Positions 1-27,890 of a stretch of 32,000 nt of DNA are shown piece by piece. The notes under the pieces are model-generated. The model ran no database searches, had not been told where the DNA came from, and saw only the letters and a list, made by a program, of their open reading frames with translations. The stretch is taken from NCBI GenBank assembly GCA_965227835.1, contig OZ245768.1, forward strand, positions 540,001 through 572,000, given 5' to 3'. Within the stretch, counting starts at the first letter, position 1. Every line of letters starts with the position of its first letter. Origin of the DNA: Candidatus Saccharimonadota bacterium. Its GTDB lineage: Bacteria > Patescibacteriota > Gracilibacteria > BD1-5 > UBA6164. A program made the position numbers and the translations under genes.

Positions 1-3000
1 CAGTGGTTTTTGCAGTTCAGCTCAAGTTCATGTACTCCATATCATCGGCAATAATCAAATTACAGAAGTAAAAGCAGTCATAAGTACAGGTCTCAGTCTT
101 ACCATAGCTCAGTGAATAACTGATACATGGATTCATTCTTTTGTTATAATTGTATTCTTGTAATCTTCTTTCTTCAGAACTTTTTCATCCATAAGAGGAA
201 GTCAGAATTTTTCTCTAAAGGCATTTTCTAGATACAGAATCATTACTACTCATGTCTCAACAGCATTTCAGAATAAGGATATAAATCATACCCATACAGC
301 TACTGAAAAATTAAATCATGATATATATAATGCTATAATTCAACCTATCAGACTAAAAGGGATAGAAAGAGCTACAATTCATACTAGACCTCCATCTTTA
401 TAAGCTAAAAACAGAATAAACAATATAATTAGTACTACTGTAGGAACCACTACTTGGAGAGTACTTTTTGCTCTTAGCTGATTTTCATATTGTCCTGTCC
501 ATTCAATATAGTATCATTCAGGAAGTTCTAGGTTTTCTTCTATATATTTTTTTCCATCTTCTACAAAGCTTACAAGATCTACTCATTGTACATTCATCTG
601 TACTGCTGATCTAATAACTCAATTTTCAGAGTTTATAGTTGCTGGTCAATCTATTAAAGAAATGTTAGCAACTTGAGAAAGAATTACATTTCATGTTTTA
701 GAAGAAACTTCTAAACTTTTAATATCATCTAAACTTTCTCTATAGTTATTTTTTAATCTTACTTCGATTCAATATTTCTCTCTTCCATCAATTGTAGTAC
801 TCACAGTCTTTCATCAAATACCTACGGAAATAGTATCAAGTACATCTCATTTTTTTACTCCATATTCATTTAACTTTCTTTCATCTATATCTATTTGTAA
901 ATATTTAAGACCTGTTGTTCTAATGGCTGTTACTCAGAATCCTCATGGAACATTTCACATAAGCTCCTCAGTCTCTATTGCTAACTCTTCAAGTTTCATA
1001 GGATCATCTCAAAATATTTTTATTCATACCTGAGCTCTAATACCTGTAGAAAGCATATCTATTCTTCAAATAATTGGCTGAGTAAAACCATTCCAAAGAT
1101 TATTTATTTTAATATTTCTATTCATTTCATTTATAATATCTTCTTTGGTTACTCATTCTCTCCACTCTGATTTCGGTTTGAGAGTAATAATAGTTTCAAG
1201 CATAGCCATTGGAGCTGGATCAGTCGCTGTCAAAGCTCTTCAAGCTTTTCACACAACTGTTTCTACTTCAGGTACTTCAGAGATAATTCTGTTTGATTCT
1301 ATAAGAAGATCTCTTGCTCTTCTATCACTTACATCAGGGACAGTCATTGGCATATACATGATACTTCACTCATCAAGTGGAGGCATAAATTCAGATCCTA
1401 TTCTTGTAAATAACCCAAGTCATACAACAAGAAGTATTCACGATATTGTTAAAGCTATTTTTCTTTTATTTAATGCCCATATTAAGATTGGTTCATATAT
1501 CCTTTGAAATAATCTTACGATTGGTATTTCATTATCTTTTTTTAGTTTTCATTTTAGAAAGAATACAGATAACACTGGTGCAAGAAAAAGTGAAGCAAAT
1601 AAAGCTCAAAGCATTGCAAACATATTCGTAAATGCAAGTGGCGAGAATAATTTTCATTCTTGTCATTCTAGTGCAAAGATCGGTACAAATGAAAGGATAA
1701 TAATCATAATAGCAAACATAAGTGGTCATGCTACTTCTTTTGTAGATTCATAAATTATTTCTGCTCTCTGTTTCGTACTAATATTTTCTTTTCCAAGCAA
1801 TCTATTATATGCATTTTCTGTAACTACAATCGCCGCATCTACCATGGTTCATATGGCTATAGCTATTCCTCAAAGTGACATAATGTTTGAAGGTATATTA
1901 AAAAGCTTCATACATAAAAATGTAATAAGCACTCATATAACCAAAGAAATAGCTGTTACTATTGAAGCTCAAAAATTCCATAAAAACAGAAAAAGAATAA
2001 TAACTGTAATTATAAGTTCAGCAGTAAGAATAGAACTTAATGTGTGTATTGCATCTTTTATTAAGCTTGTTCTATCATAGAATGGAACAACTTTTACTCA
2101 TTCAGGTAATCATTTTTCTAACTCTATAATTTTTGCTTCTACATTTTCAATTACTTCTAGTGGATTTTTCTTATAACGCATTACAACGATTCATCCTACT
2201 TTTTCTTCAAATTGATCAGCAAGTATTCATCTTCTAAATTCTGCTCAGATCTTAACATCAGCAATATCTCAAAGTTTGACAGATATTCAGTTCACTTCTT
2301 TTATAAAAGTGTTTTCTAGATCAGACTTTGTTTCTACAAATCATATTCATTCAATAGCGATTTCTTTTCATCACATATCGATTACTCTCCCTGAAACATT
2401 ATTATTTCAAGACTTAATAATATTTTGAACTTCCTGTAAAGTAATACTATAATTTGAAAGTTGTAAAGGATCTAAAACTATTTGAAAATTCTTTTTATAT
2501 CATCAAATAGAAGCCACTTCAGCAACTCAAGAAACACTTTGAAGTCATAATTTTATATAAAAATCTTGTAAACTTCTAAGTTCTGTAAGATCATGATTAT
2601 CACTTTCTAAAGTATACATATATATTTGCCCAAGCCCTGTCGCATCAGGTCAAAGTACAGGTTCAACTCATGGTGGAAGATCTCATTTTATAAGACTTAA
2701 TCTTTCATTTACTCTATCACGAGCAAAGTATTCATCTATGTTATCCTCAAAAATTACAGTAACCATAGATATTCCTAGCTGACTCATAGCTCTTACATCA
2801 CGAACTCCTGCTAGTCATTGCATACCAATAGTTATTGGATAAGTTACCTGGTCTTCAATATTTTTAGGAGTTTGTCATACCCATGGAGTCATTACAACAA
2901 CCTGATTTTCAGATAAATCAGGAAGTGCATCAATAGGTGTTTTATAAAGAGATACAACAGATACAATAGAAATTACAATAAAAACTATGACTGTTATAAA

Positions 3001-3039
3001 TCTATTTTCTATAAAATATTTTAAGATTTTATTTAACAT
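1..3039 (-). CDS. Heavy-metal-efflux type RND inner-membrane transporter (CusA/CzcA family). The C-terminus runs off the window start.
   Basis: ATG at 3039, with 1013 codons open to position 1 when TGA is sense. Motifs read: 'MTPWVGQTP', '[13 protein letters not shown]', '[22 protein letters not shown]' (the Gly codons at 1870-1872 and 1849-1851 are TGA) and '[17 protein letters not shown]'. Trp positions use TGG. The only long standard-code ORF here (1532..1729) is off-frame. Confidence 0.9.
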
Positions 3040-3044
3040 AATTT

Positions 3045-4886
3045 TTATTTAATAAATATTGGAGTTGTAACTACTTTTAAAGTTTCATCAAAATTACCAG
3101 TCACAAGAGAATATTCTCAATCATCTGATACTATAGTTACATCTTTAACTCATAGTTTTCCATTATCTTTTTTGTAATATACAATTTTTCTTTCTTCTTT
3201 ATTATATATTGCACTTGTTGGCACTTTAAATACATCTTCCTTATTTTCTAAACTTACTCTCACAGTAGATTTATTCGGAAGACTTATTTCATCTGAGACT
3301 TTAGCTTGAACAGTAATACTAAAGGTTTTTTCATCTATTTCAGGAGAAATACGATAAATAGAACCTGTGAAACTTTTTCCTTTATCATCAGAAAGATAAA
3401 AACTAATTTCTTTTTCAAGCTTCAAGTTTTCTTTTAGATTTTCAGGCACATAGAATTTGATCTCTTTTTTTGTTATTCTAGATAAGGATGTTTCTACACC
3501 AGAAATTCTAAAAGCTTCAGTATTAAGAGAGATTTTTTCACCCACTTCTATACCTCTTTTTGAAATAACTCAAGAAAATGGAGAAGATATTTTATAGTCT
3601 CCTGATTTTATATATTCACTATTTAAGTCTGCTTTTGCAATTGCTATATCATTTTCAATATTAATTATTCATCTATCTTCATTAGCAATAAGTAACTCCT
3701 TAGATTTCTTTAAAGTTTCAATTTCTGCAGATAATTTTGATACAGCTAATTGCTTTTCTGATTCTGTTGAATTAGATTTTGTTCATAATAATGCAATTTC
3801 ATTTTCTTTTTTAGATATTTGTAGCTCAATATTTTCAATTTTTTCTTTTTGAGCAACCTCTAAAACATTATACATATTTTTTGCATCATCTAATACTTCC
3901 TTTTGAGAAATAAGAGCTGAATTGTAAGTATTAATATTCGAGATATGAGTACTTATAGTATTTTCATCTGCACTTACAGAAATAATAGTGTTTTGTAGTA
4001 CAGTTATTAATAAACTATTAATCTCCAATAGGTCACTATATTTTTTATCTAATTCTAAATCGTTAAAATTATTATGGAATGTCTTAAGTTTATTTATAAG
4101 TTCATTTTTAGACATTGTATTCTTTGCTCAAAATTGGTCAGAAAAATCATAACTATTGATTTTTCTATAATCTAATTCATCTTCATTTCAAATATATAGT
4201 ATTGGTATTATTTTGTTATATATTTCATCTATCTTAGAAGACAATAGTTCTTCTTTTTGAGTAATGTTATTTTTACTTTCATCTAATAACTCTATTTTTG
4301 ATTTTTCTGCATTTTCAAGGTTCCTTTGTAAATTTTCAAGAGATTTTAAAGATACCCCATACTCTGATCCAAGAGTAGAATCATCTCAAATTTGAGATAT
4401 TTTAGAATTATAGTTATTAATTGTTTCTTCTAGAATAACCTCTTTTTCTTTTATTCTTTGTTCTAATTCTGCAACTTTTGCATCTTTAACTTTTATAGCT
4501 TCCGAAAGAAGATTATTTTTAGATGAGACAACTGTATTTTTAATATTAATTTTTGATTGTCACTCTCAACCAACTCATGGATTTAGAAGTATAGCTAATG
4601 TATCTCATACTTTTACATGATCTCAAATATCAACAAGTATATCTTTTACTATAGCATCTCTTCTTGGATAAATACTTGCTGTATCATTTGATATAAATTC
4701 TCAAGGAAAATAATCAGTTTTAGATATTCTCTCAGGTGTTGTATGTTTGTATACCTTTTTATTTTGTATTTTGGTTTCTTGTTCTTCTGTTTGTATTTCA
4801 GTATTATTTTGAGAAGCAAATACAATAAATGAAATAGTTAAAAGAGATATAATAAAGCCAAGAATTAACCATTTTTTATGATTCAT
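3045..4886 (-). CDS. Efflux membrane-fusion (periplasmic adaptor, HlyD/CusB-like) protein with an N-terminal membrane anchor and a very long coiled-coil insert (613 aa)
   Basis: Track ORFs 4701..4886, 3783..4115 and 3150..3545 share one frame and are separated only by TGA. I checked 3546-3782 codon by codon and found no TAA/TAG. N-terminus is 'MNHKKWLILGFIISLLTISFIVFA'. The split lipoyl-like halves are 'IVKDILVDIGDHVKVGDTLAIL' and 'ISSPFSGVISKRGIEVGEKIS'. TAA at 3045-3047 lies 5 nt before the pump ATG. Confidence 0.85.
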
Positions 4887-5502: not shown

Positions 5503-7530
5503 CTAATCTATTTTTAATTTATCAAAAAAGATCTTATTTCTCATTTTTGAATCATCTACTATTTTATCCCAATCAATAACTTCTATATATAAATTATTGT
5601 TTCAATACCAATCAAAGTAACCTTGTCAATCAGGCATTACTTTAAAGTTCTTTTCTCTTTGTAACCAACTCTTTACTTTTTCAGTTAATGTACAGACTAT
5701 ATATCAATAAAAAGGCGTATTTTCAGCTACTTGGATATTTTTTCATTTAGGTGTTTTATACTTTCAATCCACAATACTGTTAACATATCTAATTATTTGT
5801 TGAACAGGATCTTCCTTAGATGAAGGATTAACAAAATCATCTCTTCATGGTTTCTTAAATTCAAAAATTGTAATCGGATTTGAACTATTATTTTCTCATC
5901 TAAAAGCAATTTTTTTATCAAAAATTATTACATCTCATCTTTCGGTGTTTCATCAATTTAAAGGAATATCTGATGATATATAATCTGCGAAAGCTAATTT
6001 TTCATCAAGAACCCACATATTATGATCATTATAATCTACTGATTCGGAATCATTTTTAGTAGGAAATATAATTGTATGTAAGCTATCTTCAGATTTGTAT
6101 TTTTTAGTATCTTCATCCCATTCTAAAGACTTCTCTAATAAATCTAAGGTGAATTTCCTTGTAGCCACATAGTGTGCTAAGTCTGTTTTAACTAAATCAT
6201 CTAATGATGATACAAGTTCACGAACTTCAGATTCATTTGAAAAATCACTAGTTTTTACAAAAGTATTTACTTTCACTTTTGCTTCTTTTTCTTTTTTATA
6301 TTTTAATTCATGAAACTTTGCATCTAAATTATCTTCAGAAATTGTTGAATCTATACTATTAAGATCAAAATTTTTATATAGTGCACTATACCAAGGAGCT
6401 TTTTTATTAATAAAACTTTTTACTTTATTCACTTTAATAACTTGCTGTTCATCTAAAAAATCCTTATATAATTTTTTGATTTTCTCAGTAACTACATTAA
6501 AAATTTCTTTTTCTCATATAAAATCTTCGAAAACTTCTTCATCTTTTAAAAAATTAAAACTCTCCCTTTCTGTATCAACATTATCATCTAAGTAATCTCA
6601 ATACACATAACACTTTATTGAATAATTATTTTCTTTTTTGTCATTAGTTTCTTTTAATTTCTGATTAAAATCAGGTATAAATTTTCATAAGTTTTCTTCT
6701 ACAACTACCCTATTATGTCAACAAAGACTAATAGTATTATTTTCTATAGAATATTTAACTTTAAAAATTTTTAATCAAAACTCTATTTTATCTGCTTCTA
6801 TATTTCATTTAGGAATATGAAGTTTATTGTTATGTATAACACTTATATCTTCTTTATTTCATATCATTGAATTTAATTTTTCACTATCATATTCATCAAA
6901 TATAACTATTTCTGGACAATTAAAATCATCATCTACAAAGTACATTAATAAATGCTCTAGTAGTTTTCTTCATAGAGTTGGTACTTTTTTACTTTGAGAA
7001 TTTAGCTTCGTTATATATTGTTTTTTTAATCTTGTTAAATATAATTTAGTTCAAGTTTCTTCATCATTAGATACATCAATTATAGTACGATTAGACATCA
7101 TATCTTTTGCATTTATATCAAAAGAAAAACTGATCTTTTTTCTAATATCTCAATCTTGATAAACACTCTCAAAGTCTACCTTTTCAAAGAACTTTAAATA
7201 GAAAAATCTACCAAATCATTTACCTCAATGACTTTCAAGTTTATAATCACTTTTAAAAGTTCTAAATGATTTTTGATTATCAGAATTAAATCAAACCCCA
7301 TTGTCTGTAATAATAAATGATTCTATATCCTCTAAACTTTCCTCTTCTAATCATGATCATAATTTAGTTTGTTTACTTCTTATGACTTTTATAGATATTT
7401 TACCTTCTTTCTTTCAAGATTTTTCAAAAGCATGTATCCCATTTACAATTCATTCGTAAATAGGATAATAAACAGAAGTATTTTTTATATCATTAACTAC
7501 TCATTTTATATTGATTTCTCATATAGCCAT
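5503..7530 (-). CDS. GHKL (MutL/MORC/HATPase_c_3-like) ATPase fused to a C-terminal PD-(D/E)xK nuclease-like domain (675 aa)
   Basis: ATG at 7530 and TAG at 5503-5505, 2028 nt, in frame with track ORF 5953..6432. Bergerat motifs: 'YEGIVNGIHA' (E-x3-N-x3-A), 'ITDNGVGF' (7288-7305, one Gly is TGA) and 'HGGKGFGRFFYLKFF'. C-terminal 'RGDVIIFD...PITIFEFKKPGRDD' (EFK at 5848-5868) fits D...ExK. Confidence 0.75.
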
Positions 7531-7556
7531 ATGTATTTCTATTTATAAAATGTAAA

Positions 7557-8954
7557 CTATTTATTCCAATATTCTAATAAATTTTTTAATGCTTCTTTAA
7601 ATAGTTTTGGAGCATTTACTCAAAGAATTAATTTCCCATTCTCATTTAATAAAAAACTCACCTCAATTTCAACTATGGTTTCCTCTGTACTTCAATATAA
7701 AACAACTGATCTTAATATTTCATACTTTGGATAATTAGGTTTAATGTATAAATCTTCAATAGCATCAAAATCATCTAATTCTTTTATTCAATTAGCTCTA
7801 AATTCATATTTTTTTCATTCTAAATTTAGAATTTCACTATTATCAAAATCAATTAATATTAAATCAGGTATTGCTACTTTTTTAGATTTATCTCAATTTT
7901 TATATTCCTCTCTATCTATATATTTTTGCAATGGTATATGTTTTCATTCTTTTGTTAAAAAGTATGATTTTTCACAACCAGCATGATTTTCAAATAAAGA
8001 ATTACTGTTAGTAAAGTATTCAGTAACTATATGAATGAAAATAGTTCCTAGTTTTTCTCATTTTTTATCAAAATGCCAATATTGAGTTTTTGCAACAGGA
8101 ACTGATGAGTCTAATCCATCAAACTCTAAATTTAATTTACTAGCTATTTGAACAAATTTATTATTTCATTTAATATGTTTCTGTTCTAGTCAATGTTTTG
8201 TTATTACTATTTTTTTAGTCCATCAAAGTTTCCTTAATGTAGAAGCTATCAAACTTAAAGCTCAAATATTTGGATCATGAGCTAAACTATCACTCTTCCA
8301 TAATCTACCTGATACTTCTATTCTATCATCATATTTATCTATTAGTATAGGTACATTTCATTTTGGAGGTCTTCTCATTGAATTTTTCATTTCAATAACC
8401 TCATCAATGCTTGAAAATTTTTGTAAGTCATTATCAATATTTTCTTTTCATAAAACTTCTACTCAAAGTGTATACAAACATCTAGTTCAAAAAATATTTG
8501 TATCAGTTTGACTCTTTTTCTCTTCAACTTGAAGAGAATATAACATAATCTTTCTTACATTTGGATAGAAAAAATCAATATATACAAATTTAGAAGCTCT
8601 TTGAAATACTCAAGTATTCCTGCTTTCAGAATCATCAGTCTTAGTTTCTTCAATTGCATATAGTGGTTCATCATTCTCATTTGGTTCATCTTCTTGATAG
8701 AATAATAAGAAATCAACAAAACTAGATTTTCAACTTACTGTTTTAATAAAAATTTCTCAAATTTGTTCTGATGTAAATCAAATTACTTTGTAAGTAAAAG
8801 CAAAATTACCCTCCTTATTTAATACAGGAAGAATTCTAATGGTATCAATAAAACAAGAAATTTCATTATCAGTAACAAACTTATACAATATATTATGTAT
8901 AACTTCTCTTTTAGGTCTTTCCTCAGTTAATATCCATAGATTTTTCTTATCCAT
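7557..8954 (-). CDS. Restriction-endonuclease-like protein with two PD-(D/E)xK-like motifs (465 aa)
   Basis: ATG at 8954 and TAG at 7557-7559, 1398 nt. N-terminal region reads 'SFVDFLLF...LYAIEETKTDDSESRNTGVFQRASKF'. C-terminal region reads 'VAIPDLILIDFDNSEILNLEGKKYEF', a FokI-cleavage-domain-like position. It sits 23 nt downstream of the methyltransferase and 26 nt upstream of the GHKL gene. Confidence 0.6.
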
Positions 8955-8977
8955 TTTTAGTTTTTTTAATATTATTA

Positions 8978-10117
8978 TTAGATATTCTTTTGAAAAATAA
9001 GAATATATTGATGAATTTGGTTTGATACATATGAGAATGGATATCAGTAAGGATATAGATTAACTCATTGATCAGCCCATATTTTAGTTCACAAGTAATT
9101 TAGGTCAGGAATTTCATTTAAATCCAAAATCATATTACAATGTAGAAGATTCAAATCTTTTCATTTTGGTTGCATATCTTTTATAAAGACTACTACATGT
9201 CACTTGTTTTTCAATAACTTCATTGAATTTTCAATACTCTCTTTAAACACTCTTCTAAAGTCTTCAGATTCCATATTTCATAAATCTTCTTTAAGAGAAG
9301 TGTAAGGAGTCGCTGATGTATCTTTTTTTAATTTTATAGCCTCTCATGTTTTTTTTCTATTCATCATATCTCAATATGGAGGATCAATAAGAATTAATGA
9401 TAACTCTTCATCTCAAATTTGATTAGCTATTTTTCATGATTTTAACAGTTTTATAGAATCTCCCTGAATAGTTTTCTGCTCCTTTAATCATAAAAAGTCA
9501 TTTGCTCTTTTGTATGCATCTATAAAATCATCAGATAAGTCTATTCAAATAGCTCTTCTATTACATAGAGAAGCTCAGAGTAAAGTTCAACCTACTCACA
9601 TAAAGTAATCTAATACTAAATCATTCTCTTTAGTAAAAAATTTGATAATCCCTTCCATTAATTGAGGTGGTTTTGGAGATGGGTGTATTTTTCTAATATG
9701 ATGAGCATATCAATCCTCTAAACCTGTTGTATACCTAGTATTTATGACTGAATTCAAGAAAAAAGTCCATTCTCATCATGATAAATCATTTAATTTATTC
9801 TTTAGGTGATACTTTCTTTTATCACTAATTTGAATAACTTGCTTTGAATTACCTATTAAATATGCATTATTTATATCCTCTTTTACCCAAGTTGGAAGTC
9901 CAGCAATTTGTTCTTCTGTTAAATAGTCTACAGCTCTCGTATGTTCTTTATTATCATCATTTTTTATAATCCTAAGCTTATTTTTACACTCTTTTAATTT
10001 CCTATTCAGTAAAATTCCAAATTCTTTTTCAAGGTCATCAATAACCTCATCTTCAAATTCAGACAAATTCTTTTTACTTAATAGTGCTTTAATCTTTTTA
10101 TAATCTATAATGTCCAT
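8978..10117 (-). CDS. SAM-dependent N4/N6 DNA methyltransferase (DPPY type) with permuted motif order and an extra roughly 110-aa N-terminal region (379 aa)
   Basis: Track ORF 9776..10117 continues through TGA TGA. Motifs read: 'LSGGEWTFF', 'HPSPKPPQLMEGIIKFF', 'VLDYFMGVGGTLLGASLCNRRAIGIDLS', then 'LILIDPPYG' (9374-9385), 'LLKNKGHVVVFI' and 'HQYILIFQK'. TAA at 8978-8980, 1140 nt. Confidence 0.8.
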
Positions 10118-10121
10118 TTCT

Positions 10122-11155
10122 TTATTGTTTTTCTATATAAAATAATAATTCCTCAAGATTATGTTTTAGATCTCAAGCTACATGTTTATATCTCCTATAT
10201 GGGATTCTATATAACTTAAATGTTCACTTTTTTGAGTATTTTTCCATTACCTTTTGTATATCACTTTCTCCCATTATTCACTCTGTACTATAACTTAGAA
10301 TGATATGTTTAAAGTTAGCATTGTTGATCAAATCATCAAATTCATTTAAAACATCTTTTTTTATACAATATTTCGATCTAACATTTTTATAAGGTCTCAT
10401 TCATGTTTTACCATAAATTTCAGGATTATCATATTTAGCTATAGTTTCAAGTAAATGATAATTAGGTAGATATTGCCTTGTATTATATGGAGGATCAATA
10501 TATAGAATATCTCAAGAAATCTGTTTAATTAAGTTATTAGCATCTTCATTATATGATATATTATCTTTAGAATTATTTAGTATTTCTATATCATTTAATT
10601 CTAAAGGTTTTAAAGCTCTATTATCCCAATGTTTCAAATATGCTCAATATGTTCAGGCTATATTAGAATAAAAAGGTATAGCATGAATGAGTGTTCCAAG
10701 TAAATAATAAAATTCATTATTTTCGATCAATTCTTTTTGTTTCCATTCATTTAAAGATTGTCTTATAAAATCTATTTTCAGAGCATTATCATTTGAAATA
10801 TACATTCTATCAGACTTTTTATTCGGAGAATAATTTTCATAAATAAAAGGAGTATCTTTAATATCGTTTAAAGATACTTTTTTTTCATTTAGATATTTAA
10901 TAGGATTAGTTCATAAATGAGCTGATATTTTTTTAAATTCAGGAATAACATTTTCCATTATTGCTACCCTCTGCATTACATGTGAAAAAAACAATAAATC
11001 ATTCGATATTATTGTATAATCCTTTTTAAAAAATTCAGCTACTGATCATGTTCAAGAAAAAATATCACAGAAAATATCAACATTATCTTTAATATTTTCA
11101 TCAATTACCATTTTTATTTTATCTAGCAATAATCTTTTTGAACCTATATATCTCA
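10122..11155 (-). pseudogene. D12-class / COG3392-like N6-adenine DNA methyltransferase (M.FokI-domain-like), with the reading frame broken near 11100-11104
   Basis: 'MRYIGSKRLLLDKIKMVI' (from ATG 11155) is in one frame. The rest is in the adjacent frame: 'ENIKDNVDIFCDIFSGTGSVAEFF...NIAGTYGAYLKHWDNRAL...ILYIDPPYNTRQYLPNYHLLE (DPPY 10485-10496)...YGKTGMRPY...ILSYSTEG...YRIPYRRYK', ending at TAA 10122-10124. The body frame has a TAA at 11118-11120 upstream. The N-terminal frame hits TAG at 11039-11041. The pattern is consistent with a 1-nt deletion in 'attg-tgaaaat'. Confidence 0.7.
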
Positions 11156-11368
11156 TTAAAATTCAGTTGTATTAATATTTAAAACTTTCTTAATTTTTAT
11201 TAATTTTAAATAAGTAATATTAGTTTCTCATCTTTCTACCATACTAATATAACTCCTATCAATTCATGTAGCTTCAGCTAGATCAAGCTGACTCATTCAA
11301 AGTTCTTTTCTTGTTTTTTGTAACTCTTTTCATAAACTCACTAATATTTCTTTATCTTTATTTTTCAT
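11039..11368 (-). CDS. XRE-family HTH (RM controller/C-protein-like) ORF that, as written, runs in frame into the first 18 codons of the adenine methyltransferase
   Basis: ATG at 11368. Sequence 'LGKELQKTRKELGMSQLDLAEATGIDRSYISMVERGETNITYL' has four TGA at canonical Gly positions. I checked codon by codon: 'GAA TTT TTA ATG' (11153-11164) gives no stop between the HTH and 'MRYIGSK'. The frame ends at TAG 11039-11041. Confidence 0.7.
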
Positions 11369-13430: not shown

Positions 13431-13844
13431 CTATAAATTTTTAATCTTTTTTATTTCTTCTCTCTTTATTTTCTCAGCATGTATATAGATCTGAGAATAT
13501 TCTGAAGCTTTACTCATTATCTTTTCAGCTAACTCTAGAGTTGTTTCTCATTCTATAACAAGAGATTCTAAAAGTTCAGAAGTACCTCATGCTATTACTT
13601 TTTCTGACTCTTCTATTTTCGCTTTCCAAGTATCAATCTCAGCTTGAGAATATCAGGCTGAAAATTGATTTATTCTATCTTGAAACTGTTTATTTATTAT
13701 TCATATTTTATACTGTTTAATTTCATCTGTTAACACTTCAGGTTCTTCTAAAACTAGCTTACTTTCTTCATTTATATATGCTTTGTATCACATATCTATT
13801 AATCTCTTTTGCTCTTTTGTTAGAGTGTCAAAATTCAATTCCAT
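13431..13844 (-). CDS. Hypothetical coiled-coil protein (137 aa) immediately downstream of the fibre gene
   Basis: ATG at 13844 and TAG at 13431-13433, 414 nt. The ATG lies 3 nt after the fibre stop ('AGA TAA AA ATG'). Confidence 0.55.
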
Positions 13845-13846
13845 TT

Positions 13847-16063
13847 TTATCTGATTATTACATTAAAAGTACCAGCGGTTCAAGCTGTTCAATTTGTTCA
13901 AGCACTTCAAGGCTGTGGACTATATGATCCTGAAACAGTTCATCAAGCACCTCATGATCATCAAGCACCTCAACTACTTAATAAGTTATAGTTCGCACTA
14001 TCTAATCCACAGATAATAGCTCAACCTCCACCTCATCATCATCCTCATCAACCTCATCATCCTCAACCTCAACCTGCACCAGAATTTCATCATTTTCATC
14101 AACTTCAACCACTTGCTCATCTAATATCAATAGTTCAACTTCCTTTTATTTCTCAGGCTTTGATTATGATATTTCATCAGTTATTACCTAATTCTCATCA
14201 TGCTCATCAACCTCAACCTGCACCATTACTACATCAACCACTTCATCAAGCTGAAGTTCAACCTGAATTTTGAGTATATGTTCAGTTCCAATTAGCATTT
14301 CATCATGGATTTCAATAAGCATCTCATCAAGAATTACTACATGAACCATATCATCATAAACCTCATGGAAATCAACCAGCACCACCTGAACCTCAGCTTT
14401 GTGAATCAGCAGCACCTCAACCTCATCCTCAACCATACCCTCAAGGATCTCATGCTCATCAAGAAGCTCAAGCTAAGTATCAGTTTATACTATGACTACC
14501 TCAATTTCATCAAGCACCACCTGATCATCAATTTCATGGTGTTAAAGTAGATCAATTGAATAAAACAATATTTCAATTATTTCAGAGTCATACTACATTT
14601 ATAGTTCATTCAATATTACAAATCCTACTACAATTTAGCTCTAAAACTCAATCACTACCTGTTACTTGTAAGGTAGCTCAAGAAGCCACAGTAATACTTG
14701 AATAGTTATATATCCCAAATGCTAAATTATATGTTCATGATAAAACTTCTAGATCTCAATCTCATCAATTTCAATAAAAAAGATCTATTCATAAAGCACT
14801 GGAATCAAATGAGATTTCAGTTTCACTTATAGCTCTGAAATCATTTCAAGTTGTTAGGTTTCAGGTAGAAATATCATAGGTATAGTAGTTTCAAGTTACT
14901 AATCCTGTTTGGTGTTTATCATATCAGGTATTAACTTTCTTAAATTCTCATGCATTTCAATCAGCCTGAAGTATTCAAATAAAATTAGTTCATCAAGGAA
15001 TAATAAGTTTATATCATGGTATTTTTAAATACATATCTCAGCTTGCTCATTGCCAAGATATTCAATCATAAAGTAATGCTTGTCATATAAAATCTCAATT
15101 TGATATAGTTCTTCATATTTCATATCTATTAACATCTGAATAAGTTCATGTTCTTTTTACTACTATGTGATATAAAACTTCATTATCTAAATTACAAGCA
15201 GTAGAAAATGTAAAAGCTTTCTCAGTTAATGTTCAATTAAGTTCGGTATAATTGATTGTATTTGATGTTCAATTTGTAACTACAGTTCAACTAGGAACTC
15301 AAGCATTATCAGTTTGTATTTCTATATAAATTCAATCATCAGGACTTCAAACTGTTTTAAACATTAAATTAATAGTATCTATAGCTCATTGTCAGTATAT
15401 TTTTTGTCATACATAAGGTCTAGAATTACTACCAAAATACATATTATCATCATGATCAAGTTGTGAATAATCAACCAAACTCATTGCTTTTCAAACAGTA
15501 GTATTTTGACCTAGCATATAATTTAAACTTGCACTATTAACTTCAGCTTGTAATCAAGTAATATTACTTCAATCAAGAGCTGGAAGTTTTCAGTTTTCAT
15601 CTGTTTTTACTAATTGATTCACTCAATTAAAAATATTTCACATCTTTGTTACTGATGGATTTTTTAGATCTATAAATACTCTTTCATCTGTAATTACTCA
15701 AGAATCTATTGAAGCTAGTTTTATAAAATTACTAGTAGGATAACTACCAGCTGTTTTTATTTCTCAAATTCAGGTTCAACTTGAATTATTACTGATTCCA
15801 TCATCTACATTTGCTTGATTTATTTCTATAAAAACTTTTTTAGTTCAAGTTGTATCAATAACTACATCAGCTGTATTTTGAAATAATACAGGGAAAGTTT
15901 CTGAATCTCTAGTCACATCAATAAATCAGTAACCTGCTGTTACTTTTCAAGATTGCACTTCTAATCATTCAACTACTCAGGAACTAGCAAGTGATTTAAA
16001 AATTTTTGCTAGGTCATAGTCTTGGTTTATATTTTCTCAGTTTAATAAAGCTACTCTTTGCAT
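13847..16063 (-). CDS. Glycine-rich tail fibre / receptor-binding-type protein (738 aa). The C-terminal third is mostly Gly, and most of those Gly codons are TGA.
   Basis: I translated every codon from 13847 to 16069. There is no TAA/TAG between TAG 16067-16069 and TAA 13847-13849, and the first ATG is at 16063. The C-terminus contains 'GGSGGAGGNGG...GGYGGGGGGAADSQSGGSGGAGG...' and an 18-residue poly-Gly (14021-14074). Track ORF 14188..14436 is an off-frame artefact. Confidence 0.8.
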
Positions 16064-16083
16064 TAACTAGATATAAAAAAATA

Positions 16084-16128
16084 ACTGTAAAAATATTACA
16101 GTCATCTTTTTTCCCCTCAAGGTCTTTT
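16084..16128 (-). promoter_or_regulatory. Repeated intergenic element, copy 1: box AAAAGACCTTGAGGGGAA (16111-16128) plus a 7-bp hairpin (16084-16102) and T-run. It lies upstream of the fibre gene.
   Basis: The box overlaps the TAA of the upstream gene. The box end is 48 nt from ATG 16063. The spacing TTGAGG-N17-AATATT places the hexamer at the hairpin apex. Confidence 0.6.
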
Positions 16129-17155
16129 ATATCTCAAGGTTCTTGGTTCTATTTTTTAAATCTTGGATTGTTTCTATTAAATTTAAAGTCTTTATATTTC
16201 ATTTACTCAGCTTTATTTTTACTTTATTTAATTCTCATGATCTGAATTCTTTTTCTATTATTTTTAAATGAGAATCAAACTGCATAATATCATTTCAAGC
16301 ATCAATAAAAACTTTTACAGTATCTCATAAGTTTGCTACAAAAAAATCATAACTTAAAGGGGTAATTTCAAGTTCCCTTATGGAATCTTTTCTATCAGAT
16401 AACAGACTATCTTTATCTCATGAAATAAAATACTTTTCTTGTCTTCAAAACTCATTAATACTTGGCAAATCTTCACTGTTTCAGGTATCTTTTGATATTA
16501 CTGCATTACTAATATTTTCACTATCATATTCAAGCTTTGCTGTATCTATAGTTCTACTTCATGGGAAGTTTATATCATAAGAAAACTCTATAAAATTGGT
16601 TCAACTTGTTTTATCTTCTCATATGGAATTTAAAAAATATAAAATATTATTTCTTATTTCAAACTCATATCAATTCAAGGCTAGATCTTTTAAAATATCA
16701 AAAAATGTTTGTCATTTTTTATAGGTTTTAGTTACCTGATCTAGTATATCTGAATTCAATGTTATTCCAGTATCATATCTAGAATTTATTACATCTAGTA
16801 CATCTATTAATATAGATTTAATCTGAGTATTTGTATATGATTTATCAGTGTATAAAATCTTATTTTTTAGTAAAAATATCTTATCATTTAAAATTACTTT
16901 TGTTTTACTCAAATCAGCTTCTACTCCTCTTATAATTCCATCAAATATTAATTTTTCACTATTATTTTCTACCTTGTATATTAAAACTTCATTAAATTCT
17001 TTAAAATTATTATATGAGTTAGATTTATGAGTATTTGATACTTCAAAGCTAGCACTAGAAATATCATTTAATTTTTGTCTTACTTCTAGTTTATTTACCT
17101 CAAATATCTGAGTTTTTTTATTTCACTCATGATCATTTACATAAATTATAAACAT
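16127..17155 (-). CDS. Phage tail structural protein (Tal / prophage-tail N-terminal-domain-like), 342 aa
   Basis: ATG at 17155 overlaps the upstream stop (TAATG). In frame with track ORF 16712..16912, 1029 nt. N-terminus reads 'MFIIYVNDHEGNKKTQIFEVNKLEVRQKLNDISSASFEV'. Position is after Dit and before the fibre. Confidence 0.55.
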
Positions 17156-18027
17156 TATAAAAGTGAATTACGGAAATAAATATTTATTAAGAAATCATTA
17201 AATGGTATATTACCATCTTTATCCTCTATAAGCAGTTTTGTAGTTTCTAAAATTCTAATCCACATACTTCAAGCAATCCTGTTTGATAGAATATTTTCTC
17301 AATTTTTGGTTACTGTATAATTTTCTGAATCTATAACTATCTTATCTCAAGCTACTGCATCTATGTCTAGTCAGAAATATGTATTTTTTGTTAGATCTCT
17401 TATCATTAATGGTTTATTAATATCTCCACTTGCTGTTATTTCTATACGAGCTGGAGTATCTATATTTCAAGTAGTCGTACATTCTATAATGTTATCTATA
17501 TCACTAAATGGATTTGATAATTTATAAGAGAGTTTAAATCCTCAATAATTTCACTCAAGTGAGGTATTTAATATTTCATTTAAGCTCTTATATACTGGCT
17601 CTTTGGTACTTTCTAGAACTACTCTCCACTTCCAATAACTTCAAACAAAAGATTCATCTCACTCTACAATTTCAAGAGGTTCTTTTATTTTTACTTTCAA
17701 AGTCCACTCATTATCATACATATCTTTGATATATAATTCTTTTTCTTCTAGACTCACTAGACTTCATTGCAGTGCAAATATTTTTTGTAAATACTCGATA
17801 GAGTTTTGATCTTCTAAAGGATTTCAAATTCTATCACTGATTCACTCTAGAGTTATTATTCTTATCCTTGCATAAGTAGGACTTACATTCCTCCCATGTA
17901 TTCAATCTATATTTTCTGAATCATCACTTACTGTTAATTTTCTCCAATCCTTAAAAGTATAAATAATTCATGATTCATTATCTTTTAAAATATCTTCTCA
18001 GTTTAATTTTGCGATTTTAAAATCCAT
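17155..18027 (-). CDS. Distal tail protein (Dit, siphovirus tail component-like), 290 aa
   Basis: ATG at 18027 and TAA at 17155-17157, 873 nt. It lies immediately downstream of the tape measure gene. 'NIDTPARIEITASGDINKPLMIRDLTKNTYFGLDIDAVAGDKIVIDSENYTV' is typical of this family. Confidence 0.6.
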
Positions 18028-18036
18028 ATTTAAATA

Positions 18037-20937
18037 TTACATTCTAAATTTTAGCTTATCAAAGAATAGTTCTAAATCTATGCTATTTGCTACATTAATA
18101 TTTCATACATCTACCTTTTTTGAGTAATCATTTTGCACCGATCTTCCTTGTCTTATAAGTTCAAGTTCAGGAATTATATTTGGCATTTTTTGTATCATTT
18201 CTTGATTTAATACATATTCTCATTTATGCACTACTCATGCTACTTCATGCTTTGCTCAATCTCATGTATAACCTCACTCAGCAAATCAAGCAGAACTACT
18301 ATTTCTAAGTGCATTTAATCTTCTTTGAGCTGAAATAGCACTATTTACTTGAGATATAAGACTTTTATAAGATGTAGATAAACTTGCTACATTTTTATTC
18401 AATATAGATGTAGTCTTATTTGATAATAAAATAGTCGCTTTATTAATTTCTATTTGCAGTTCAATAGCTTCATCTTTTTGTCTTGTAAGAGCTTCTTTTT
18501 CTCTAGCTAGTTTAAGTATAACTTCTTGCTCCTCCTCAGATAGCCTTAAAAATCTTTCATCTTTTATGATAGTATCTATTTCTTTTTCAGTTATTCTTTT
18601 CTTTTCAGCAAAAAACTCATAAAATTGTTGTTTTCTTTCTAATGCTTCCTTTTCTGCATTCAACTCATTTTCTGCATCTATTTCTTTTTGGTTAGACTCG
18701 GATATTATTCTTTGTTTCTCTTTTTCCTGATCTATTAATATTTTTCATATTTCTGAAGCTTCATCATATTTTCTAAGTCTATCTAATACTTTCTGATCTA
18801 CTATTTCTTGAGCCTGAAGTTCTTCTTTTATCAGAGCATTTAACTCCTTTTGTAAAGCTATTTTTTCTTCAGCACTTTCAGTATCCTCTTTGATTTGCAA
18901 TTGAAGTTCTTGCTTTTCTTTTTCTATTTCAAGTAATCTTTCAGCTATTTTTTCCTGAGCTGAGTTATTATTTTCTCCAAGTCTTTCTTCTCTCTCTTGT
19001 TTAATAAGTTTAATGGTTTCCTCATATTTCTTTTTATTTTTATCTAAAGCATTATTTACTTTTCTGAGTCATATTTCAATTTCATCATTATATTTTTTGG
19101 TATTCTTTGCTAAGCTTTCACTTAATTTCTCAGATTCTTTTATTTTAGCATTATAATCTTTATAGCTATCTTCTAAGTCTTTCATATTATCTTTGATTTC
19201 TTGTGTTGCACCAGCTCATGCTTTTCACATATCTTTAGCTTTTCCTCAAACTTTTTCAAAGCTAGATCAAAGTCCATCAATGGTAGTATTTATTTTATCA
19301 AATACTCAGGTACTACTTTTACCTGTATCAGCTATATCTGTTTCATAGGCATCAATATTTTCTAGCATTCTATCAAATGCCTTAGAATTATTATTTTTGA
19401 TCTTATCCCATGAATCAGTCCAAGCTTTTTTTGTGTTTTCTAATCATTTACCATTTTTAAGTACTAACTCTTCCATTTCAGTATTTACTTCCTTTATTTG
19501 AGCTATGGTATTTCTACCTAGTAATTCTAAAAGTATATTTATCTTATCTATTGCTGAATTTATAATTCCTATTACAAAGTTAACTGATTTTTTACCTGCT
19601 AGCTGAACGATATTTAAGGCAGATCAGAAAAAATTACCAAGTCATGTTCCAAGTGTTTTTATAGCTCAGAAAATACTTCATAAAACTGTATTTATAACAA
19701 TATAAATAGCCTGAAAGCCATTTGATATTGCCATTGCTAAAAACTTAAATAATTTGAAATTATCTTGAACTTGTTTTTTATTTTCTCAGGTTAATATCTG
19801 GAATGCATCGGTTATTATTTCAAATACACTTGTAAAAATCCCTGCTATTGCTTTTCATATATTGATTACATTTGTTGCTATATCACTTCAAAAATCAATA
19901 ATAGAAGCCATATTATTTTGCAAAAAATTGTTTATAGTTCCTATAATTCACTTTAAAGTATCTGATATATTAAGTCACATCTTTGATCCTGCTATCTCTA
20001 CATTATCTACCAAATTACTCCACATACCTGTTAGAGTTTTAGCTTGTTTTTCCATACTTCAGGCAAATTTTTCATTTAATCCTGTAAGTATAGCATTTAC
20101 AGCTGTAGCTGAATCAATTCCTTGATTTCATAAATCTCAAAGCTGTGCCTTAGTAAGTCATAATTGCTCTTCCAAAACTTTAAAAATTGGCAAACCTCTC
20201 TCAGCCATTTGTAGTACCTCTTCAGTAGATAGTTTTCACTTAGCTTCTATTTGTCATAATGCTAGAATAACTCAGTTTAAATCATCTTGTCATCTACCTA
20301 CTGCACTTATTGAATCTCATAAAACTTTTACAGTAGCAAGAGCTTTTTCTCACTCAAATCAAAATCATATAAGTTGTTGTATTGATTTTGTTAAACCTAG
20401 TTTATTAAATGGAGTTTGAGATGCTAACTCATCTATATCTTGTAGCATCTGAAGTGCTTTTTGCTCACTTCAAAGCAAAGTTTCAAAACTTATTTTTGCT
20501 TGCTCTACTTCAGCTCCTAGTTTTGATATTCACTTTATAAAATTTCAAATAGCATAAACACTAAATGCTCATGCTATAGCTCATCAAATACCTTTAAAAA
20601 ATCATCATAGTTTTGATGTTTTATTTGTTACTTTGCCAAGTTCTTTTTCTGTTTTCTTTACTTCTTTTTGTAATTCTTTAAATCTCTTACTTCATATCTT
20701 AGTATCATCAAGTTCATTGTTTAAATTCTTTAGTTTAGAGTTTAATCATCATATAGTTTTCGTAGTTTTTTCTGATTCAGATTTTATTTCTTTTAATCAT
20801 TTTTTTCATGAGCTCCCTAACTCTTTTTCAATAGTATCTCATGCTTTTTGAAATTCATTTTTTATTTTTAAGGTAGAATTCTTTATACTATTTTCATCTA
20901 CTGATAATCAAACTCTTAGTTCTCATAGGTTAGACAT
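18037..20937 (-). CDS. Tail tape measure protein (TP901-type core), 966 aa
   Basis: ATG at 20937 and TAA at 18037-18039, 2901 nt, in frame with track ORF 18286..18663. Core sequence reads 'LASQTPFNKLGLTKSIQQLIGFGFEGEKALATVKVLGDSISAVGRGQDDLNGVILALGQIEAKGKLSTEEVLQMAERGLPIF', followed by TM-like segments and a long coiled coil. Confidence 0.9.
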
Positions 20938-21451: not shown

Positions 21452-21715
21452 TTAGGAGAATTTATAAGTAAAATAACTAAGTAATCATATAATATCTTCT
21501 TTTAAAACTACTACGATGTCATTTTCTCTCTGAAGTAGCCTTTTAAATATTTTTATCCATGTTCAAATTAAATCTTTTTTTAAATCTATTACTTCTAGAG
21601 AATTTTTAAAATAAGTTTTATCAGCTTCACAGAAGCTATATTTATATTCTATTCCTCAAAGAGAAAATACATCAGTTTCTTGTTTCTTATATTTATTTAG
21701 ATCAAGAGTTTCCAT
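21452..21715 (-). CDS. Hypothetical protein (87 aa), possibly a second tail chaperone
   Basis: ATG at 21715 overlaps the major tail stop (TAATG). TAA at 21452-21454, 264 nt. Confidence 0.5.
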
Positions 21716-22482
21716 TAGCTAACTGCTTGTTCATCAAAAATTTCAAAGATATTATTGTTACCATCAGGATATCCTATAAATTCTACTGGAATACTTGCTA
21801 CTGACTCAAGATCATCATCTTCAGGGAAATCAAAAGCAAGATTGCTTGTTGCATAACCTTTATAGATTTTGATACCGAATTTTTTACCATTTTCATCAGT
21901 ATTTTCAAATGTAACTTCATATAGATTAAGAGCCTTAAGTACATCTTTATAAATCACAGCTTTTGAAACATTAGGAGTGTAAGTATATGTTACTGTAATT
22001 TCTCCAGCTTGTGCTGATTTAAATAAAATATATGTTTCTCCTAGTTCTCAATTTTCTCCATCTCAAACATAAGTTGAATATGATGTAGACGTAACTGTAG
22101 TTCCATCAGCTTTTACATTTGTAATAGTGATAATACTATCATCTCCATTCTTATTATTAAGCTTAAAAGGAGTATAAGCTATACCAACTGCTCAGTAAAC
22201 TTCATCTGTTACTGTTGTAGGTATTCCTGCTGTATTTACTAAATCTCCGATTCCATCTACTTTTGCAATGTTATCTAAAAATAATTCAGCAAGTTCAGCA
22301 TTAAATTTAACCTGATCTATCTTTTTTCTTGGTGGTAGTTTAGAGTTAGCAAATTTTAATTGAGCTATCAAGAATGACACTTCTAGTCATGCTCATTTCA
22401 ATGCTCATACATTTACTCCATCTAATTTCAGAATACCATTTCACATTCTGATAGAATCAGATCTTTGCACTGGTGTTTGCAT
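21715..22482 (-). CDS. Major tail protein (255 aa)
   Basis: ATG at 22482. Track ORFs 22192..22380 and 21715..21957 are in the same frame, joined through TGA, 768 nt. The protein is beta-rich with an acidic C-terminus. Position is upstream of the chaperone and tape measure genes. Confidence 0.65.
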
Positions 22483-24798: not shown

Positions 24799-26010
24799 TT
24801 AAGTTGTTTTATTATTTTTAACAAGCACTGTAGCTTCAGGATTTTCTATTAAAATATCTAGTTTCATTTTATACCAGAAATTATATCCATCAGGTGCAAC
24901 TCTTTCAGGTTCAAGTTTTAAGTCAGTTTGGATTCAGATAATTACATTTTTAGGATTCGTTCCTATAATATCAGCACCATCTAAGATTACTTTATCAACT
25001 TTCATTCCAGCTTCTATATCATAGATTAATGGTGTAGTTGTTGTAATAGAATTTGCATCTATAGAAGCTACTATATAAGTCATTTGTGTAGCATTACCAT
25101 AATCTACAGTTATACTATCTCCAGCACTTATACTTCATGTTAAATCAGTATCTATAAATATACCTAAAGTTCATGCATTTTGTGGATTCGTGATATTAGC
25201 TGAAACTCATGTTTTTACAGGATTTTCATTTATCATCAATGATACTTCATTGATTTTAGTTCCTGCAATTCTATTCTTATTAGTTTCTCCATCTCATCTA
25301 TTACCATTTGGATCATTATATAATTCATCTAAATCTATTTGAGTATCAGGATCATGGAAGAATTCTATTTCTTTTTTATATTTATTTGCTAAAGCCTTTT
25401 TAGCTTGAACATATTTTTTTCTTGTAATATCTCTACCTGTAAACACATTCGTATCTGATCCATCTAGTACATTACCATCTTTTTCAATTTGGTATTTAAT
25501 ACCATCAAACATATTTAATATTCAATTATCAGCTGATGGAGTATCTACTTTTCTACCATATATTGCAGTTTCTACTAATTCATTAGCAATCTTTTTAGCA
25601 ATAATTCTTTTCATATGTTCTTCAAAGCTTTTTCACTCGATGTTATCATCAATTTCATCATCTGATAAGTAAAAGAATCACTCTACTTTCTTTGAGCTTA
25701 AGAAAATTGAATCAGTTTGAACTTTATATCATGCTTTACCTGTTTGACCATGAGTTCTTTTACCAGCACCTCAAGGCATTAAAAATTTTCAAGGAGCAAT
25801 TAATTTTGCAATCTCTTTTGTTGGTCATGTCATTGTGATCACTCTGAATTTTTTCAGTAATCAATCTGATTCATCTTTTACATAATCAATAAATTGTTTA
25901 GCTTCATCATTTTTCCAATGAAAATTTACAGGAACTCAGTTTGAATCTAAAGTGAAAGCCTTTTTTAGATCCTCTGTTTTTTGAGTTCTTTTCTTTAGTT
26001 GTATAGGCAT
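24799..26010 (-). CDS. Major capsid protein (HK97-fold type), 403 aa
   Basis: ATG at 26010 and TAA at 24799-24801, 1212 nt, in frame with track ORF 25294..25512. The call rests on position after the scaffold gene, on size, and on the C-terminal 'PDGYNFWYKMKLDILIENPEA'. Confidence 0.75.
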
Positions 26011-26033: not shown

Positions 26034-26450
26034 TTAATCTATTTTTGAGATCCTTTGATCTTTTAAAACTTTTTCTATACTTTCAACTCTATCAATTGTA
26101 GAATCAAGAGCATCAGATACTGTTTTATCATCTTCTTCTTTTTCTTTTTTAATTTTTTCTATATCTCCTGTTAATTCTTTAAGTTGTCACATAAAATTTG
26201 TTACATCATCAGAAGATAAATACATATCCACATATTTTTTGATAGCTTCTTTTCAATCATCTGACTCAAAAAACTTTTTAATATCTTTTTCGGAAGTAGT
26301 TTCAGTTTCATCTTCTACCTCTTTAGAAAGTTTAGCTTTCATTTCAGAAGCCTCTTCAAATTTCTTAATTGCTTCCTCTGATTTATCTTCTTTTAATAGA
26401 GATATACCATCAGAAAAAACTCCAAAAAATTTTTCTAGTAGTTCTTTCAT
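26034..26450 (-). CDS. Scaffolding protein (138 aa, acidic coiled coil)
   Basis: ATG at 26450 (the Met internal to track ORF 26253..26513, whose upstream extension crosses the repeat box). Continues through TGA to TAA 26034-26036, 417 nt. Confidence 0.65.
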
Positions 26451-26494
26451 ATAAATAAATTTAAAATATAAACAATTACAGACTAGTTTCTTTA

Positions 26495-26674
26495 TTATTC
26501 CCCTCAAGGTCATTTCAAATTGGATAGAATCTTATTAAGTCTTTCTTTGTTTTTATTTTTCTTTACTGTTTTAAATAATGCGAATTTATTCTCAGCTTGC
26601 TCTACTGCAGGTGTATTATCTTTTGTTACTAAACTAATTCCATCTACAAACACATTTTTTATATCTCTAGGCAT
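26495..26674 (-). CDS. Small ORF (59 aa) resembling the N-terminal 'ISLV..AN...FAI.K' segment of XkdF-type proteins
   Basis: ATG at 26674. Sequence 'MPRDIKNVFVDGISLVTKDNTPAVEQAENKFALFKTVKK...LKGPGGE', with TAA at 26495-26497, 180 nt. Confidence 0.45.
26498..26515 (-). promoter_or_regulatory. Repeated element, copy 4: box AAATGACCTTGAGGGGAA. The downstream hairpin is weak.
   Basis: The box end is 48 nt from ATG 26450. The spacing is TTGAGG-N17-AGTCTG. The box lies inside the last codons of the 59-aa ORF because no TAA/TAG precedes it. Confidence 0.55.
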
Positions 26675-27124: not shown

Positions 27125-27890
27125 AGTCTATCACTCAACTATCAGGATTAACAATACTATAATCAGTATAACATCTACAGTTAAATCAATGAGGTGCATG
27201 ATCTGTATTAGTTCATGGAAATAGTTTATTTTTAGCTATCCATCAAGCATTTTCATTTTCTATATGACTTTCTCTAGCATTACTATCTCATTGAGTAATA
27301 CTTCTTTTATATCAAGTTACTCCAAAATTTTTAGTATATTCATCATGCTGTTTTCTTGATCAGTATTCGTATGCATTTCATACTTCCATTACTGCTATTA
27401 AGCTTGATCTATATGTTGAATACTTTAAAAACTTATCATCAATCTTTTTAGCAATTTCCCCCAGAGTATCTCATTTAGATATTCAATACTCTATAATTTT
27501 TCAAATCTCTTCTCTAGTTGTTTCATCTATTTCAGATATCATTTCTCAGGCTCTTTTTTCTGCATACTCTAATTGATATTCATTACTGATTCAGATATCT
27601 AAACTAAGTCATATATTTTCTAATTCTAACTTACTTTTTTGCTCTTGCTCTAATTGTCAGAGTAAAACTATAGCTGAAAGTTTTTCTATTAATTCTTTAT
27701 TAATTTTTGGATCATTAGCTTTTTTAATATCCTTGTTATCTTTTAGTTCATCAATGTATTTTTTAGCTTCATTTTGAAAGTATTTATTGAAATAGTCTAT
27801 AAAATCATAGAAGTAATTCATAAACTCTTTTGATTTTACTTTTTCAAAATCATCTATTATTTTTTTTACTAATTTTATTTGTTTTTTCAT
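27123..27890 (-). CDS. Minor head / head morphogenesis protein (SPP1 gp7 / Mu F-like), 255 aa
   Basis: Track ORF 27657..27890 continues through TGA. C-terminus reads 'ITQGDSNARESHIENENAGWIAKNKLFPGTNTDHAPHGFNCRCY'. TAA at 27123-27125, 768 nt. Confidence 0.8.

Follow-up and report, generated by a model that had tools for sequence, protein, structure and literature searches.

The glycine-rich lattice tips of gp38 from Salmonella phage S16 and of gp24 from cyanophage Pam3 are known receptor binders (PMC9608196). In gp38, a beta-helix domain stands ahead of the glycine-rich part, and gp24 is a single-protein fibre whose C-terminal glycine-rich domain (39% Gly) contains GGGGxGG motifs and which needs a small chaperone, gp25, for its assembly (PMC9608196). 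Prophages of Gracilibacteria and Absconditabacteria are reported to be probably compatible with genetic code 25 only (Liu et al. 2023, mBio, PMC10746230). Here, we describe a gene that bears on both kinds of system, located in a window of 32,000 nucleotides (positions 540,001 to 572,000 of contig OZ245768.1, assembly GCA_965227835.1, Candidatus Saccharimonadota bacterium). The gene occupies 13847..16063 on the minus strand, like all 34 open reading frames of the window, is complete and encodes 738 amino acids in code 25, with full-length homologues in the public protein collection (P0001-P0008). In our reading, to which we give a probability of roughly 80%, its product is a receptor-binding protein or distal tail fibre built from three modules, and it belongs to a siphovirus-type prophage carried by a Gracilibacteria-class (Patescibacteria) chromosome that uses code 25.

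Modules and position of the fibre gene

A database search with the fibre returned 26 relatives, and comparison of the related fibres showed that an N-terminal anchor is kept while the C-terminal modules are exchanged. The anchor module (aa 1-135, 15659..16063) is conserved among fibres with differing C-terminal modules: P0001-P0008 are collinear with the fibre over its full length, and P0009-P0022, L009 and L010 have only the first ~130-190 aa in common with it, followed by unrelated C-terminal modules. The homologue P6 shows 70% identity in the anchor and 49-51% in the remaining two. The middle module (aa 136-428, 14780..15658) has a conserved core, 'SPxDxxxIEIQTDNAGxPSG...YHIVVKRxG', which reads 'IEIQTDNAGVPSG...YHIVVKR' in the fibre and is also found in the standard-code proteins P0025, with Collar and Gp10_C tail-fibre domains, and P0026, with Laminin_G_3; the module has no Pfam match of its own. 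The C-terminal domain (aa 429-738, 13850..14779) consists of 37% glycine. A conserved attachment part combined with exchangeable distal parts is the classical design of receptor-binding proteins.

The position of the gene points the same way. It follows the genes for a tape measure protein (TMP; 18037-20937, 966 aa), whose 966-aa orthologues in the related loci L001, L002 and L005 carry PF20155 TMP_3, for the distal tail protein Dit (17155-18027; Pfam SPP1_Dit, 7.8e-9; PHROG 33 'distal tail protein Dit', 6.4e-10) and for a Tal-like tail protein (16127-17155), which has a weak N-terminal match to Prophage_tailD1 and is syntenic in all related loci. The order TMP, Dit, Tal-like protein and fibre recurs in L001, L002, L003, L005 and L006. 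Assignment of the gene as a tail fibre or receptor-binding-type protein, as the original prediction had proposed, is therefore well supported by inference from its position and its modular architecture. In the arrangement that we propose, the anchor of ~135 aa would presumably dock the fibre on the Dit/Tal baseplate hub, the middle domain of ~290 aa would lie between anchor and tip, and the C-terminal domain of ~310 aa would presumably form the distal, host-contacting tip that binds the receptor.

The protein could instead be a tail-associated enzyme or a structural part of the baseplate, such as a beta-helical tailspike of the depolymerase type, with a glycine-rich domain that is not a receptor-binding element. 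Solenoid-like segments in the predicted models described below do occur in many tailspike enzymes, and giant multi-copy members of the domain family (4,000-7,400 aa) resemble cellular surface proteins. However, the domain is nearly devoid of acidic or basic side chains (5 Asp, 3 Glu, 3 Lys, 2 Arg and 1 His in the last 258 aa), which leaves few typical catalytic residues; Pfam, NCBIfam and PDB sequence searches gave no match to an enzyme family; and a terminal position with exchange against other C-terminal modules is typical of receptor-binding tips. We consider this alternative unlikely.

Family and predicted fold of the glycine-rich domain

The glycine-rich domain starts at FYGNGGDGDL (aa 429) and extends over 310 aa to the C-terminus. 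Within this start, GNGGDGDL (aa 431-438) is a variant of GDGSDG[DA][LV], the signature of an uncharacterised family that we refer to as 'GDGSDG'. Alignment of the domain to the family with hhalign gave a probability of 99.9% (E 5.5e-31, 259 columns), and the family hidden Markov model (HMM) scored 100.4 bits over aa 416-734. Judged by these profile comparisons, the relationship is not compositional, because the hhalign probability is that high and none of 200 composition-preserving shuffles matched.

A profile built from the code-25 versions of the domain (A1) found 143 proteins, with the start motif in 79 of the 120 listed; where the motif was present, 290-340 aa separated it from the C-terminus. 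These matches contain 20-30% glycine and are standard-code sequences, since tryptophan amounts to at most about 1% in most of them. An exhaustive search with a standard-code profile against 1.84 billion representative proteins (clusters at 50% identity) returned 21,759 matches at E <= 1e-3, 12,391 at E <= 1e-10 and 2,942 at E <= 1e-30, and among the best 143 the domain lies at the very C-terminus in 131 and the motif is present in 103. The same domain (20-30% Gly) is thus encoded by GGN codons in thousands of standard-code proteins, which is why the glycine richness of the tip is independent of recoding; the family to which the tip belongs is ancient and not tied to a particular genetic code. 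The window protein shares start motif, length and C-terminal position with this family, and differs from it in that two-thirds of its domain glycines are encoded by TGA and not GGN, and in the motif variant.

Several members of the family stand in phage contexts. The gene for the standard-code protein P0115 lies immediately behind genes for Baseplate_J and Mu Gp48, in a prophage of myovirus type within the 4.19-Mb genome of a Firmicute, P0029 sits in a block of phage structural genes, and Mtd_N is found at the start of some members. In a tblastn search of GenBank phages, the N-terminal part of P0151, and no other part of it, matched proteins annotated as tail fibres in cultured phages. We also observed giant proteins of 4,000-7,400 aa with 2-8 copies of the domain (P0147, P0148, P0149 and P0154), which differ from the single C-terminal copy usual in the phage proteins. 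Pfam, NCBIfam and the PDB hold no model or relative of the family; both the protein and the family profile, when searched against PDB sequences, returned Gly-Ser linkers and insignificant Obg-type matches only, and searching the literature for the motif GDGSDG yielded no result. The sole PHROG to match is 13336 ('unknown function'), and it does so for part of the family.

The glycines of the domain are regularly spaced. Autocorrelation of glycine against non-glycine positions reached 0.369 at lag 3, compared to -0.004 +/- 0.068 in shuffled sequences (maximum 0.22 in 2,000), and in 98% of family members the autocorrelation peaks at this lag. The domain carries six GGxGGxGG motifs, and against distant relatives its glycine positions are ~85% conserved, with 28-34% identity at the non-glycine positions. 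AlphaFold2 models of two standard-code proxies, P0027 (mean predicted local distance difference test score (pLDDT) 73.9; predicted template-modelling score (pTM) 0.71) and P0029 (mean pLDDT 65.7; pTM 0.68), both have solenoid-like runs of short strands, predicted with confidence (pLDDT 80-98), where the domain begins and once more behind its glycine-rich core. For both models, the best Foldseek match in the PDB was a springtail antifreeze protein, a bundle of polyproline-II helices (E 0.4-0.5, not significant), followed for P0029 by small beta-solenoids (likewise not significant). In the viral library BFVD, Foldseek matched uncharacterised proteins of Caudovirales and giant viruses at E 5e-9 to 6e-4, some of them labelled 'collagen-like', a label that stems from giant-virus annotations. 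We propose that period-3 (GGX)n segments with conserved glycines and variable residues in between would lie between and after the solenoid-like regions, in a packing that may be of the polyglycine-II type. A collagen-like fibre was considered and rejected, as the domain holds a single run of four GXX triplets (domain positions 291-303, protein aa 719-731) and has no Pfam Collagen match.

A number of observations weigh against the reading of this gene as a prophage tail fibre with a folded, receptor-binding tip. Searches of Pfam (E <= 0.1), PHROGs, NCBIfam and PDB sequences with the fibre protein returned no family, and the 'GDGSDG' family is known here from sequence and predicted proxy models alone. 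Those models stand in for the fibre at about 34% identity or less, their central ~100 glycine-rich residues have pLDDT below 50 in both cases, and neither gave a significant Foldseek match in the PDB, S16 gp38, Pam3 gp24 and ALK being absent from the matches. In a tblastn search of 50,697 GenBank phage records, the window domain and P0115 remained unmatched, possibly through low-complexity masking. On the side of the genomic setting, the E-value behind the Tal assignment of 16127-17155 (0.0027) falls under the Pfam cut-off, no integrase or prophage ends were located in the window (ends and att sites were not pursued), and efflux genes at 1-4886 are the sole sign of a chromosomal context.

The low-confidence core of ~100 residues (pLDDT <50 in both proxy models) and the lack of a PDB fold match would also suit a glycine-rich C-terminus that does not fold as a domain and instead forms a linker or brush, flexible or disordered by nature, in keeping with one half of the 'flexible or beta-helical' tip of the original prediction. 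Such a linker is hard to reconcile with a domain that keeps its length (~290-340 aa) and its C-terminal location in thousands of proteins, with conserved glycine positions, with the strong period-3 order and with the pLDDT of 80-98 at both domain ends, some glycine-rich loops included; moreover, the polyglycine-II lattices known so far are likewise all-coil by DSSP. We therefore regard a disordered C-terminus as rather improbable.

Glycine encoded by TGA

The original prediction had singled out this gene for a C-terminus encoded largely by TGA. Its count of about 69 TGA codons plus many GGN codons within 13850-14600 was accurate, the 250 codons there comprising exactly 69 TGA and 36 GGN, and the peptides it quoted are present apart from minor transcription slips, the actual sequence reading '...ASGGAGDPGGYGGGGGGGAAD'. 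Glycine accounts for 41% of the C-terminal 258 aa but for 12% of the first 480 aa, which, in agreement with the prediction, are otherwise ordinary in composition; the corresponding figures are 22% for the whole fibre and 6.6% for the other open reading frames (ORFs) of the window. TGA usage, in contrast, is no special property of the glycine-rich tip. The share of TGA among glycine codons is 73.2% in the fibre gene (120 TGA, 44 GGN) and 70.9% in the other 33 ORFs (440 TGA, 181 GGN; Fisher p = 0.63), and TGA is present in every gene of the window. Within the fibre, the share falls from 88% in aa 1-428 (43 TGA, 6 GGN) to 67% in the glycine-rich aa 429-738 (77 TGA, 38 GGN), so that the domain is relatively poorer in TGA than the N-terminal part (p = 0.007), and TGA alternates with GGT and GGA in the poly-glycine runs. 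The TGA count is high because TGA is the default glycine codon (~71%) in an AT-rich genome and the protein is 22% glycine: TGA-heavy codon usage is a trait of the genome, and the sole special feature of the fibre is its glycine content.

Within the window, the TGA share is lower in genes presumed to be of high copy and assigned by position and orthology, namely the capsid-like (24799-26010; 0.42), tail-tube-like (21715-22482; 0.30) and scaffold-like (26034-26513; 0.33) genes, against 0.71 for the window; pooled, these three hold 23 TGA and 39 GGN, compared to 537 and 186 elsewhere (Fisher p = 5e-9). Similarly, the shares in L003 are 0.13 for the capsid and 0.08 for the tube gene against 0.45 for the fibre, and those in L001 are 0.22 for the tube and 0.75 for the fibre. 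This gradient, with low-copy tail genes richer in TGA than capsid and tube genes, was seen in the window and in three related phages (L001, L003 and L005). It suggests either that TGA-encoded glycine is disfavoured in highly expressed genes or that those genes are of more recent standard-code origin, and it hints that decoding of TGA and of GGN as glycine is not equivalent in these organisms.

An adaptive concentration of TGA in the fibre, acting as a gene-specific lock or translational throttle tied to the supply of tRNA-Gly(UCA), might be read from the same gradient, since the low-copy tail genes that exceed the capsid and tail-tube genes in TGA share include the fibre. We hold this to be highly improbable: the TGA share of the fibre equals the window average, its glycine-rich domain is relatively depleted in TGA, and TGA in every gene of the element makes a fibre-specific lock unnecessary.

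The meaning of TGA was read from a codon-by-codon alignment of the fibre gene to the DNA of five homologues. Window TGA codons stood opposite GGN, TGA and TGG, respectively, 48, 36 and 0 times in P5, 38, 53 and 0 times in P7, 33, 8 and 1 times in P9, and 17, 80 and 0 times in P6. The pairing of TGA with GGN was seen in the ordinary N-terminal 480 codons as well, and both TGG codons of the fibre gene pair with TGG in homologues. Scored with the family HMM, which was built from standard-code homologues only, the glycine translation that reached 100.4 bits drops to 15.8 bits when TGA is translated as tryptophan. Across the window, all 34 ORFs require TGA as a sense codon, with 560 in-frame TGA in total, and the 33 ORFs with a visible 3' end stop at TAA (27) or TAG (6). 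As the original prediction had assumed, TGA is a glycine sense codon (code 25) and not tryptophan, because TGA columns face GGN and because the family match scores 100.4 against 15.8 bits.

The public protein collection stores the homologues P0001-P0022 with W at TGA (code 4), giving ~16% Trp, which is why the closest relative appears 77% identical as stored in the database when it is 94% identical in code 25; annotation affects code-25 sequences systematically with this artefact. A genuine tryptophan reading, with code 4 as in Mollicutes phages and a Trp/Gly-rich C-terminus, would agree with those stored translations, yet its chance is negligible: it would put 16.5% Trp in the fibre protein and lose the family match, TGA stands opposite GGN 17-48 times per diverged homologue and opposite TGG once overall, and the two genuine TGG codons face TGG.

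The coding frame is equally clear. The gene starts with ATG at 16063-16061 and ends with the terminator TAA at 13849-13847, and its 738 sense codons include 120 TGA, no TAG and two TGG, with TAA occurring only as the terminator. Under code 11, the longest ORFs over these 2.2 kb are 82 and 81 aa, as expected from the prediction that the gene would be unreadable in the standard code. The phantom ORF that it had pointed out does exist (14188..14436, 82 aa, minus strand, out of frame); it appears under the standard code only, is rich in Asp, Glu and Val (and Met) with some His, and is an artefact, its bias arising because an offset reading of TGA/GGT-rich DNA yields GAx, GTx and ATG codons. The other two frames contain 55 and 53 TAA/TAG codons and the coding frame none internally. 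A non-coding stretch or a decayed pseudogene, rich in TGA through an accident of composition, would fit the short ORFs under code 11 and can be dismissed, given 738 codons without TAA or TAG in DNA of 69% A+T, TGA enrichment in the coding frame alone (120 against 3 and 32 in the other two) and full-length homologues with 41-94% identity over 736-743 aa (P0004, 757 aa).

The intergenic stretch 16064-16126, which separates the fibre start from the Tal-like gene, contains, on the minus strand, an inverted repeat rich in A+T (ACTGTAA-TATTT-TTACAGT) with a T-run after it. Having fewer than three G-C pairs, the repeat was missed by a consensus terminator scan; P0004 and P0013 have the corresponding stretch translated as an extension of the N-terminus. 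Scans for promoters and terminators around the fibre gene found nothing beyond chance.

The prophage, its host and described systems

Beyond the tail genes, Pfam identifies a terminase (29701-31176) and a portal protein (27875-29146), followed in the reading direction by the scaffold-, capsid- and tail-tube-like genes given above. Downstream of the fibre, small ORFs precede an SNase-type nuclease and an M15 endolysin. The block at 5503-11156 includes a D12-class Dam-like methyltransferase (10122-11156), an N6_N4_Mtase (8978-10117) and a pair of large ORFs (675 and 465 aa) that Pfam does not match; it may be a cassette for restriction-modification or another form of defence at the prophage end; the same place is occupied by a type I restriction-modification system in L005 and by an N6_N4_Mtase in L001. 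At 1-4886, genes for a resistance-nodulation-division (RND) efflux pump (ACR_tran, 743 bits; its 3' end lies beyond the window start) and a HlyD-type membrane-fusion protein, which are also TGA-recoded, probably mark chromosomal DNA flanking the prophage. This layout fits a siphovirus-type prophage adjoining chromosomal genes. Relatives of the fibre occur in metagenome-assembled genomes of Candidatus Gracilibacteria (on a 410-kb contig), of Patescibacteria and of one organism labelled 'Peribacteria'.

No tRNA gene was found in the 32-kb window or in five related loci, which rules out a phage-encoded suppressor tRNA for these sequences. As the window lacks a tRNA gene, decoding must come from outside the 32 kb, and the predicted dependence on an external tRNA holds to this extent. 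Translation of the fibre would require tRNA-Gly(UCA) and a lack of release-factor recognition of TGA, both presumably supplied by the host. With TGA in every gene, 120 of them in the fibre, the element is not expressible in a standard-code cell. The proposed lock to code-25 hosts accordingly holds for the whole element, but it is not particular to the fibre and has already been published for such prophages (PMC10746230).

In this respect the finding is ordinary in its context, prophages confined to code 25 being described already (PMC10746230). As there, all ORFs of the present element have a high density of in-frame TGA and are unreadable in code 11, and canonical phage structural genes are present; that work is not known to describe the present fibre family, its glycine-rich domain or differences in TGA share between genes. 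The fibre gene offers a clean code-25 example, as its 120 TGA codons mean that standard-code pipelines shred or mistranslate it.

As to the tip itself, the closest comparison is with gp38 of S16 (PDB 6F45) and the T-even phages, in which a conserved glycine scaffold holds variable segments thought to contact the receptor, a pattern like the one seen here. While gp38 is a small protein of its own that sits on gp37, the present domain is fused to its fibre, is larger (~310 aa) and has beta-strand coils before and after the glycine-rich core. For homology to gp38, there was no Pfam match (E <= 0.1), no PDB sequence match beyond glycine linkers and no Foldseek match. Pam3 gp24 is similar in glycine content (39% in its C-terminal domain, 37% here) and differs in that its domain has 125 aa and rests on a TNF-like sandwich, against ~310 aa here, with no match in sequence or fold. 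Pam3 encodes the small chaperone gp25; here, a 137-aa ORF lies just downstream of the fibre (13431-13844) and is syntenic behind the fibre gene in L001, L003, L005 and L006. It matches only PHROGs of unknown function (phrog_1604 and others), and its position suggests a candidate fibre-assembly chaperone, by analogy with gp25.

More broadly, and tentatively, at somewhat less than even odds, the 'GDGSDG' domain could represent an undescribed and very widespread class of tail-fibre tips (~12,000 clusters at 50% identity, in standard-code phages, code-25 Patescibacteria phages and giant viruses) that combines beta-solenoid coils with a polyglycine-II-type lattice and in which the non-glycine residues between the (GGX)n segments form the specificity surface. 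If so, the glycine-lattice receptor binders, with T-even gp38 and Pam3 gp24 as the first two architectures, would gain a third. A tip family of this size without a Pfam model makes a good structural target for the study of host recognition, including that of uncultivated Patescibacteria phages. By analogy, the glycine-rich tip may work like those of S16 gp38 and Pam3 gp24, and we do not claim membership in their families; both the code-25 prophage and the glycine-rich fibre tip are already known kinds, and the present gene is a new member of each.

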